This document shows positions 59,423-59,614 of a stretch of 64,000 nucleotides of DNA, in pieces. Made by a program: the position numbers and the translations under genes. The notes below the pieces were generated by a model, which searched no databases, was not told the origin of the DNA, and worked only from the letters and a program-made list of their open reading frames with translations. Origin of the DNA: Eubacteriales bacterium (GTDB lineage: Bacteria > Bacillota > Clostridia > Oscillospirales > CAG-382); the NCBI GenBank assembly GCA_045540015.1, contig JAZQGP010000049.1, positions 21,901-85,900 on the forward strand, given 5' to 3'. Position 1 is the first letter of the stretch, and each line of letters begins with the position of its first letter.

Positions 59423-59434
59423 GAACAAAAGTTC
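59423..59434. promoter_or_regulatory. GAAC-N4-GTTC palindrome (LexA/Cheo-box-like), site A
   Basis: aGAACAAAAGTTCt, about 90 nt upstream of the response-regulator ATG. Confidence 0.5.
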
Positions 59435-59474
59435 TAAATAATCCGCTCCAAAATTGCGCAACCACACAAAAACC

Positions 59475-59486
59475 GAACTTGCGTTC
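59475..59486. promoter_or_regulatory. GAAC-N4-GTTC palindrome (LexA/Cheo-box-like), site B
   Basis: cGAACTTGCGTTCt, 10 nt upstream of the -35 of the promoter at 59496. Confidence 0.55.
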
Positions 59487-59495
59487 TTGTTTTCA

Positions 59496-59524
59496 TTGAC
59501 AAATCGCGAGTTTTGTGGTAAAAT
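59496..59524 (+). promoter_or_regulatory. Consensus sigma-A promoter flanked by LexA-like boxes
   Basis: TTGACA (59496-59501), 17 nt, TAAAAT (59519-59524) with a TGg extended -10. Confidence 0.65.
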
Positions 59525-59534
59525 TTGCGTGCAA

Positions 59535-59546
59535 GAACAAACGTTC
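59535..59546. promoter_or_regulatory. GAAC-N4-GTTC palindrome (LexA/Cheo-box-like), site C
   Basis: aGAACAAACGTTCc, 11 nt downstream of the -10 and over the expected TSS region. It fits GAACRNRYGTTYC. Confidence 0.6.
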
Positions 59547-59602
59547 CGGATGTGTTTTGCAACAGCATAAAATGTGCAGAACTAATTTTTCGCACCCGAA
59601 AA

Positions 59603-59614
59603 GAACATTTGTTT
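59603..59614. promoter_or_regulatory. Imperfect LexA-like box, site D
   Basis: aGAACATTTGTTTg (GTTT half-site). Confidence 0.35.

Follow-up and report, generated by a model that had tools for sequence, protein, structure and literature searches.

Between a response-regulator gene and an islet of small genes on contig JAZQGP010000049.1 of a bacterium assigned to the Eubacteriales, four copies of a GAAC-N4-GTTC-type palindrome stand close together, which raises the question of which protein binds them and which genes they control. Here, "the window" means the whole 64-kb stretch of this contig that was analysed, with positions counted from its first letter. Our preferred answer, to which we assign a probability of roughly 0.68, is that the palindromes, designated boxes A to D, form a conserved array of four LexA operators (the Firmicute 'Cheo box') arranged around a promoter, P1, with a toxin/immunity locus downstream.

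Four boxes around a consensus promoter

The array consists of the following elements, the boxes being listed without strand.

59423–59434: box A, GAACAAAAGTTC, a perfect match; the outermost candidate operator, at about −100 relative to the expected P1 start
59475–59486: box B, GAACTTGCGTTC, a perfect match; its 3' end lies 9 nt before the P1 −35 hexamer
59496–59524, plus strand: predicted promoter P1, TTGACA-17-(TG)GTAAAAT, with 11 of 12 matches plus the TG in the promoter scan; flanked by boxes B and C
59535–59546: box C, GAACAAACGTTC, a perfect match; at about +4 to +15 of P1
59603–59614: box D, GAACATTTGTTT, a GTTT variant with one mismatch; at about +72 of P1

All four boxes named by the initial annotation of this DNA are present in the sequence, and its view that their clustering is non-random was borne out. 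The window contains exactly three copies of the perfect palindrome, GAACNNNNGTTC (GAAC-N4-GTTC), starting at 59423, 59475 and 59535, compared to a mean of 1.07 perfect sites per window in dinucleotide-preserving shuffles. Per window, only about 2e-6 groups of three sites within 125 bp would be expected, and the probability of at least three sites in the 381-bp intergenic region, calculated with the local base composition, is 1.2e-8. In the 1.44 Mb comprising the window and the fetched loci, 24 perfect sites were found, with only two clusters of at least three, namely the window array and a homologous array in locus L088 (see below). Box D is one of 35 one-mismatch matches in the window, where 27 are expected; alone it is not significant, and it gains significance only from its context and conservation.

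The promoter previously marked at 59496–59524 was recovered by the scan as TTGACA-17-TAAAAT with an upstream TG, and it is indeed bracketed by boxes B and C, the latter starting 11 nt 3' of the −10 hexamer. On the opposite side, the distance from box A to the response-regulator gene, given earlier as about 90 nt, was measured as 88 nt to the ATG at 59335.

A search with the frameshift-corrected reading of the first islet gene retrieved protein P0005, whose contig, L087 (GCA_052842715.1), is syntenic with the window: it carries the genes of the GH94 protein, the kinase and the response regulator, the intergenic region, genes encoding proteins of 392, 169 and 167 amino acids (aa), and glyS. The same site is occupied in L089 (GCA_052849115.1) by genes encoding a 602-aa protein and then a 180-aa protein, and in L090 (a JGI metagenome) by genes encoding a 308-aa protein and then 179-aa and 167-aa proteins. 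The flanks of the window and L087 are about 92% identical; homology breaks sharply at 59955/59956 and resumes at 62477, and the islet at 59956–62476 appears to be a strain-variable cassette region between the conserved response-regulator gene and glyS.

Four boxes are kept in all four alleles (the window and its three syntenic relatives), with centre-to-centre spacings of 50–52, 58–60 and 65–68 bp. The background identity between the window and L087 is 57% (103 of 180 positions in 59435–59665, excluding the boxes and P1 hexamers), against which 30 of the 32 half-site positions are identical (binomial P = 5e-6), while the spacer positions agree in 10 of 16 cases. The −35 and extended −10 elements of P1 are 100% identical between these two alleles, and a second promoter further downstream, P2, is 97% identical. 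Box C is perfect in the window and all three relatives; box D (AGAACATTTGTTTG) is identical in the four alleles, amid DNA otherwise about 55% identical; in box B the three relatives all have AAAC-N4-GTTC; and box A is the least constrained of the four, since each relative has its own single mismatch, all different (GAACACAAGTTT, GAACAAAAATTC and GAATAAAAGTTC). The half-sites clearly appear to be under purifying selection while the intervening DNA has diverged, and fixed half-sites with a free spacer are the trace that would be expected from a dimeric repressor recognising GAAC/GTTC.

The array also contains an internal direct repeat, 59406–59434 versus 59518–59546 (GTAAAATTT-N6-AAGAACAAA(A/C)GTTC), which pairs box A with a −10-like TAAAAT, in parallel to the pairing of box C with the −10 hexamer of P1. 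This repeat suggests that the array may have grown through duplication of a '−10 plus box' unit. A possible weak extra promoter, GTGATA-17-TAAAAT (59384–59412), lies in the upstream copy.

The toxin family downstream of the array

Downstream of P1, the islet and its borders contain the following features, all on the plus strand.

59671–59699: predicted promoter P2, a perfect TTGACA-17-TATAAT (12 of 12 matches), box-free, 18 nt 5' of the first ATG
59717–59956: first ~80 codons of a toxin-family gene (orf111), N-terminus MNFYEDFLRNQKK..., which is 95% identical to that of P0005
59957–60512: truncated RHS-type toxin C-terminal domain, including 'orf147' from 60069, found by three-frame translation and HMMER
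60532–60743: open reading frame (ORF) for a 70-aa protein that has a single membrane helix, preceded by a good ribosome-binding site (AAGGAG); no family match; immunity candidate
60747–60980: ORF for a 77-aa soluble protein, last gene of the proximal operon; no family match; immunity candidate
60986–61008: terminator-like hairpin with a 10-bp stem (6 G-C pairs) that closes the proximal operon
61015–61043: predicted promoter P3, a perfect consensus in the promoter scan, box-free, akin in sequence to P2 and P4
61139–62455: orf217 and orf215, paralogues 40% identical in alignment, with an N-terminal hydrophobic anchor or signal
62499–62532: predicted promoter P4, TTGACA-17-TGTAAT, imperfect and box-free, a third copy of the P2/P3 type on the conserved right border of the variable region

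The earlier statement that no islet component is recognisable is superseded, since the first gene belongs to a polymorphic-toxin family. P0005 has seven relatives, and the family is characterised by the N-terminus MxFYEDFxKxxKK, common to P0006, P0007, P0009, P0010 and P0011, and by a conserved central domain, REGxRIKxNVQS...FDGIDDDTIERNKP...LTMFYAAGEKG. An SH3_3 domain is often, although not always, present. The C-termini are unrelated: P0006 ends in Ntox50 (4e-26), P0010 in DUF3289, and P0007 and P0008 in a glycine-rich membrane-like tail, and a downstream module in locus L093 encodes a protein with SH3_3 and Ntox44. Ntox50 is a predicted RNase toxin domain of the BECR fold and Ntox44 an all-alpha toxin domain, both known from polymorphic toxins (PMC3482391). 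Because a constant N-terminus and centre are combined with variable toxin-type C-termini, the family has a polymorphic-toxin architecture, built on a scaffold that lacks a database model: no match to its N-terminal or central regions was found in Pfam, NCBIfam or PHROG, and no signal peptide, LXG, WXG or RHS parts were detected in the family. An AlphaFold2 model of P0005, based on an eight-sequence alignment, has a mean predicted local distance difference test score (pLDDT) of 41 and low confidence except in the helical central domain. Neither the P2 sequence nor the 80-aa N-terminus had a match in metagenome scans.

At the site between the response-regulator gene and glyS, the alleles encode proteins of 392, 602 and 308 aa, in addition to the truncated version of the window. 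Each toxin gene has small ORFs behind it, of 103, 169, 180 and 223 aa in relatives and of 70 and 77 aa in the window, none of which matched any immunity family. In every readable locus of the family, LexA-type boxes and a P1-like promoter are located 5' of a P2-like promoter, and the latter precedes every member examined. At the ArsR-HMA-ATPase site, where the L088 and L093 toxin loci are found, one box adjoins the −35 hexamer and another falls within the promoter spacer, and the L092 toxin locus, at an SdpR/SdpI-like site, has two boxes, one of them over the −10 hexamer.

In the relatives, the genes that immediately precede glyS (L087:11879–12382, L090:11479–11982 and L089:11806–12348) form a related set; they encode 167–180-aa proteins that have an N-terminal membrane helix together with motifs such as YIFSRDG and LKDDWY. 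That of L087 is preceded by a P3-like promoter of its own. The set resembles a conserved gene of the immunity type, which is absent from the window.

The toxin gene of the window is itself decayed. Its C-terminal piece is out of frame with the N-terminal part: past 59956 the open frame is frame 1, and a second frameshift at a T6 run near 60045 (about 60043–60050) leads into the frame of orf147. The two frameshifts thus lie within 100 bp, the first at the recombination joint (59957) and the second at the T6 run. HMMER searches with orf147 gave C-terminal matches in P0017 (an RHS-repeat protein, after the RHS core), P0016 and P0014, and according to the alignment the frame-1 piece YTNYDDSEESYDENGHYEHVYRF... 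and orf147 make up one toxin C-terminal domain with ~35 residues missing at the N-terminal end. There is neither an ATG nor a ribosome-binding site at 60069 for orf147, and the ribosome-binding site of the first gene has C at 59707 in place of the G of the three relatives (ACG versus AGG). The toxin gene of the window is best read as a pseudogene, which may have arisen through recombination involving an orphan toxin module. The frameshifts are unlikely to be sequencing errors, because the flanking genes (the 7.6-kb GH94 ORF, the kinase and response-regulator genes, and glyS) are intact and no frame-breaking indels appear in their alignment with L087. The L090 toxin gene (P0011, 308 aa; 10001–11469) is frameshifted as well, inside its SH3 domain, and continues as the '179-aa ORF'; decay thus affects two of the four alleles, those of the window and L090. 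The suggestion that the islet recalls a bacteriocin/immunity module consequently holds in part: the first gene does belong to a polymorphic-toxin family, but in this strain it is truncated and frameshifted. The source annotation appears not to call orf111, only orf147 being present in the protein collection. A YneA/SosA-type SOS division inhibitor was considered for orf111 and rejected, as its N-terminus is the head of the toxin family.

The 70-aa protein is an immunity candidate by virtue of its position after the toxin C-terminal domain alone. Searches of the six islet ORFs against Pfam, PHROGs and NCBIfam revealed nothing significant, and no lysis or holin gene was recognisable among the islet proteins. 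For orf217 and orf215, only three homologues were found among 5.8 billion proteins, on short contigs, in other contexts and without boxes.

It had been proposed that the 59.7–62.5 kb islet is probably SOS-inducible. It does not form a single SOS unit, given its layout, in which the terminator and P3 split off orf217 and orf215, and the box-free P2 precedes the first gene; orf217 and orf215 are probably transcribed from P3 and not from the LexA-controlled promoter. P2, P3 and P4 belong to one sequence family, TGCTTGACA-N17-TATAAT-TTAGAAA, with copies at 59669–59706, 61012–61049 and 62499–62536, and a P3-like element lies ahead of the gene of the 167-aa membrane protein in L087. Damage-independent expression from P2 and P3 would be plausible for protective genes. 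Only about 60 nt follow P4 before a bidirectional terminator hairpin (about 62580–62618), and P4 may represent an orphan promoter or a small RNA, or it may anchor recombination during cassette exchange. A riboswitch, small RNA or other leader function of the P1 leader was rejected, its predicted RNA fold being no better than that of shuffled sequences (z = −0.85), and an Rfam search of 59000–63000 found no family. The small ORFs between P1 and P2 were likewise discarded, since they have no ribosome-binding site and indels occur there in the relatives.

To the left of the array, the minus strand carries genes for an OmpR-type response regulator (58670–59335), a histidine kinase and a 2536-aa GH94-type protein, and to the right an intact glyS runs off the window end. 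The best match to the response regulator among species-representative genomes is 76% identical and comes from an Oscillospiraceae metagenome-assembled genome (MAG); the matches are non-syntenic. The host is accordingly a rumen/gut Ruminococcus-like clostridium of a species that this collection lacks, and exact look-ups of three window proteins returned no record. The rest of the window contains housekeeping and cell-surface genes, including hrcA-grpE-dnaK-dnaJ, ABC exporters, SLH proteins, infC, folD and lgt. The gene of a cohesin-dockerin protein (31054–31779) adjoins those of two SLH-domain proteins of more than 1100 aa (region 31054–39159), and the 2536-aa protein (49236–56846), of the GH94/glycoamylase type, stands under the two-component system. 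These cohesin-dockerin/SLH and GH94/glycoamylase genes would fit a cellulosome- or amylosome-bearing Ruminococcus-like organism.

The probable binding protein and the operon it may control

Across 26 related boxes the consensus is aGAAC-A-N-A-T-GTTC-t, with R at spacer position 1 in 22 boxes, R at position 3 in 22, and Y at position 4 in 19. This R-N-R-Y bias matches the Bacillus LexA consensus CGAACRNRYGTTYC. In C. difficile, LexA binds GAAC-N4-GTTT/C, as verified by surface plasmon resonance; the operators of lexA and recA are of the GAAC-N4-GTTT form, that of recA being AGAACAAATGTTTG, and the operator of uvrB is GAAC-N4-GTTC (PMC4234289). The 14-mer AGAACAAATGTTTG occurs 5' of the L088 toxin gene and differs from box D in the spacer only. 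Two lexA genes encountered by chance in Clostridia MAG loci carry similar sites, with GAACTTTTGTTT overlapping the −35 hexamer in locus L038 and the palindrome CAAACAAATGTTTG upstream of the gene in locus L023. No lexA, recA or uvr genes were found in the 64-kb window or in loci L087–L093. The half-sites kept in three relatives, the R-N-R-Y spacer and a core identical to the verified C. difficile operator support the earlier classification of the boxes as Firmicute-LexA-type operators and point to LexA as the probable protein bound to boxes A–D.

A homologous module is located in L088, which is another contig of GCA_052849115.1. It spans 16022–16212, with four perfect boxes at 16022, 16073, 16135 and 16201 and spacings of 51, 62 and 66 bp. 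The alignment with the window module covers TTGTGCAA..CTACAAAA before box B and CGTTCCGGA at box C; boxes A, B and C are perfect in L088, and the P1 elements TTGACAAA and TTTTGTGGTAAAAT are common to both modules. The L088 module lies 3' of a terminator and directly 5' of a 74-aa gene, terS, terL, portal and capsid genes (up to 21758). Because this copy precedes phage-like packaging genes, the module is not tied to the response-regulator gene, and the four boxes with P1 appear to be a portable, mobile promoter unit common to toxin loci and a phage-like element. Two toxin-family genes lie just upstream of it. No lysogeny module is visible in L088 between the host genes and the packaging genes, and the element may represent a defective phage or a particle under LexA control. 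A blastn search of the L088 module against deposited phages and a viral scan with the P1 plus box C pattern gave no match.

A viral scan for three boxes at similar spacing revealed 23 IMG/VR contigs (L094–L116) with at least three perfect GAAC-N4-GTTC sites, compared with ~0.05 expected in a hand estimate that uses the observed site rate and an assumed collection of ~1e11 bases. These contigs were rejected as homologues of the module: their arrays are iteron-like, mostly comprising 4–7 identical units of 16–20 bp, in phages with a GC content from 35% to 65%. The low-GC contigs L109, L111 and L106 include the perfect B. subtilis consensus CGAACATATGTTCG. The viral arrays may titrate LexA or act as iterons for phage proteins.

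Both the L088 module before terS-terL-portal and the GAAC-N4-GTTC arrays in 23 viral contigs of widely varying GC content leave room for the alternative that the boxes bind a repressor other than host LexA, e.g., a LexA/CI-like S24 protein of a related phage-like element from which the module was borrowed. We consider this unlikely. Only the half-sites and the R-N-R-Y bias are kept in the boxes, whose flanks and spacers vary as they do for LexA, whereas the viral iterons are identical; no repressor is encoded at the toxin loci that lie between the response-regulator gene and glyS; and the core motif coincides with the verified LexA operator of clostridia. In addition, host LexA is known to control phage promoters directly, as in phage GIL01 (PMC4551915).

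The array could also be a non-functional relic or recombination by-product, a duplicated piece of phage promoter left beside a dead toxin gene. The truncated, twice frameshifted toxin gene with its weakened ribosome-binding site, the frameshift in the second allele (L090) and the internal direct repeat (59406–59434 versus 59518–59546) would all fit such a history. However, the boxes of the window are the best preserved of all alleles, three being perfect, and the half-sites are under clear purifying selection amid intervening DNA at 57% identity. The intact alleles L087 and L089 keep the same architecture, and the small downstream genes of the window are intact and have good ribosome-binding sites, which makes a purely relic array distinctly improbable.

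It had further been suggested that the two-component system and the glucan-synthase operon may be SOS-controlled; on this view, the array would mainly control the divergent operon of the response regulator, histidine kinase and GH94 glucan phosphorylase/synthase and thereby place envelope glucan metabolism under SOS control. Box A is indeed only 88 nt from the response-regulator start codon and is contained in the spacer of a weak candidate promoter on the minus strand, TTTAGA-16-TAAAAT (59438..59411), and the distant orthologue in L011 (62% identical) has a perfect GAACATTGGTTC at −90 (L011:5576), at the same distance from the start codon, which is probably a coincidence. Yet box A is the least conserved box, with a different mismatch in each relative; a better and fully conserved candidate, TTATCA-16-TATAAT (59390..59363), leaves it ~70 nt upstream of the expected start; the L088 module has no adjoining response-regulator gene; and P1 and boxes B–D point the opposite way. 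When 500 bp upstream of the response-regulator gene were checked in 31 loci (the best matches in the genome collection), a perfect box was present in one (L011), and single one-mismatch sites in L004, L013 and L028. Control of the divergent operon is therefore very improbable.

Under LexA control of the toxin locus, LexA dimers on boxes A–D would repress P1 in undamaged cells. Box C, at +4 to +15, could block initiation or promoter escape, box B would act next to the −35 hexamer that it abuts, box D, at about +72, might serve as a downstream roadblock, and box A would be an auxiliary, weakly constrained site. DNA damage would lead to RecA-stimulated self-cleavage of LexA, and the freed P1 would read through P2 into the first islet operon. 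Such an arrangement would follow the logic of SOS colicins, combining a damage-induced toxin promoter with the box-free P2 and P3 for basal expression of presumably protective genes. In this strain SOS induction would mostly raise the small downstream proteins, because the toxin gene is a relic with a weakened ribosome-binding site.

Several points weigh against LexA control of the locus. Its main weakness is P2: if this promoter is active, LexA would modulate or add to the expression of the first operon and not silence it. P1–P4 are consensus predictions from the promoter scan, and the lexA genes used as controls (L038 and L023) belong to distant Clostridia MAGs, not to the host or its three close relatives. 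The 23 viral contigs, many of them from high-GC hosts, indicate that such palindromes can serve other proteins in phages, and the module has a phage-associated homologue. The islet proteins have no export, lysis or immunity function assignable in family searches, and the array could be a recent relic, given that its toxin gene is no longer intact in this strain.

Relation to known systems and significance

As DNA sites, the boxes look like ordinary Firmicute LexA boxes. They share with the LexA (DinR) operators of Bacillus and clostridia the 12-bp core with an R-N-R-Y spacer, the tolerance of GTTT seen in C. difficile lexA and recA, the position overlapping or flanking a sigma-A-type promoter, and the presence of several boxes in one divergent intergenic region. 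Multi-box LexA regions exist elsewhere, e.g., at B. subtilis lexA-yneA. Less ordinary is the conserved layout, in which four boxes extend over 190 bp at intervals of ~51, 60 and 66 bp and are followed by a box-free promoter, together with the portability of the module between a phage-packaging operon and toxin loci. The target is also different, being an unannotated Oscillospiraceae toxin family at a polymorphic locus (in the sister genome, a phage packaging operon) and not a repair, lexA or division-inhibitor gene.

In enterobacterial colicin operons, LexA boxes precede the colicin gene, which is followed by an immunity gene and a lysis gene. The locus described here resembles them in its candidate multi-LexA-site promoter before a modular toxin, in the strain-variable C-terminal killing domain, in the small genes that follow, some of them with their own box-free promoters, and in the Ntox50 domain of one relative, a BECR-fold RNase domain related to the colicin E5/D fold. 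Unlike SOS colicins, it is a chromosomal locus of a Gram-positive anaerobe, the toxin is a pseudogene in this strain, the scaffold (MxFYEDF N-terminus, helical centre and SH3_3) is unrelated, no lysis gene is recognisable, and a box-free consensus promoter directly precedes the toxin gene. The system thus looks like a functional analogue of SOS-induced colicins and not a member of their family.

The likeness to polymorphic toxins such as Rhs, LXG, CDI and MafB (PMC3482391) comprises the constant N-terminus, the hypervariable C-termini shared across scaffolds (Ntox50, Ntox44 and the RHS C-terminus), the small genes directly downstream, the orphan or displaced toxin fragments and the sharp joints in ~92% identical flanks. 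In contrast to these toxins, the N-terminal and central domains of the present family have no Pfam, NCBIfam or PHROG model and include no LXG, WXG or RHS part or signal peptide. The Bacillus thuringiensis phage GIL01 provides a parallel for the L088 module before terS, terL and portal, having host-type SOS boxes in a phage promoter; there the boxes lie in the lysogenic/early promoter and the phage co-factor gp7 is required (PMC4551915). The L088 module differs in preceding packaging genes, and the window contains no phage genes at all. In a non-exhaustive literature search, no account of polymorphic toxins under LexA control in Gram-positive bacteria came to light.

One could tentatively hypothesise that Ruminococcus-like gut and rumen anaerobes possess a hitherto undescribed class of colicin-like, SOS-triggered polymorphic bacteriocins, composed of the MxFYEDF N-terminus, helical centre, cell-wall-binding SH3b domain and an exchangeable toxin, and that the same portable four-operator promoter also fires phage packaging, so that DNA damage would trigger the toxin together with its release via phage lysis or particles. 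For the window itself the meaning is more modest: the operators are real and conserved, and the toxin that they would once have controlled is decayed. The toxin family yields a new scaffold absent from database models, the compact four-operator module could help to mark accessory genes under SOS control in Oscillospiraceae genomes, and its copy in L088 links toxin loci directly to a candidate LexA-controlled phage packaging operon. If the proposed control is true, DNA damage caused by antibiotics, bile, oxidative stress or phage activity would switch on strain-specific toxins in abundant fibre-degrading clostridia of the gut and rumen, bringing colicin ecology to a group in which no such system has been described.

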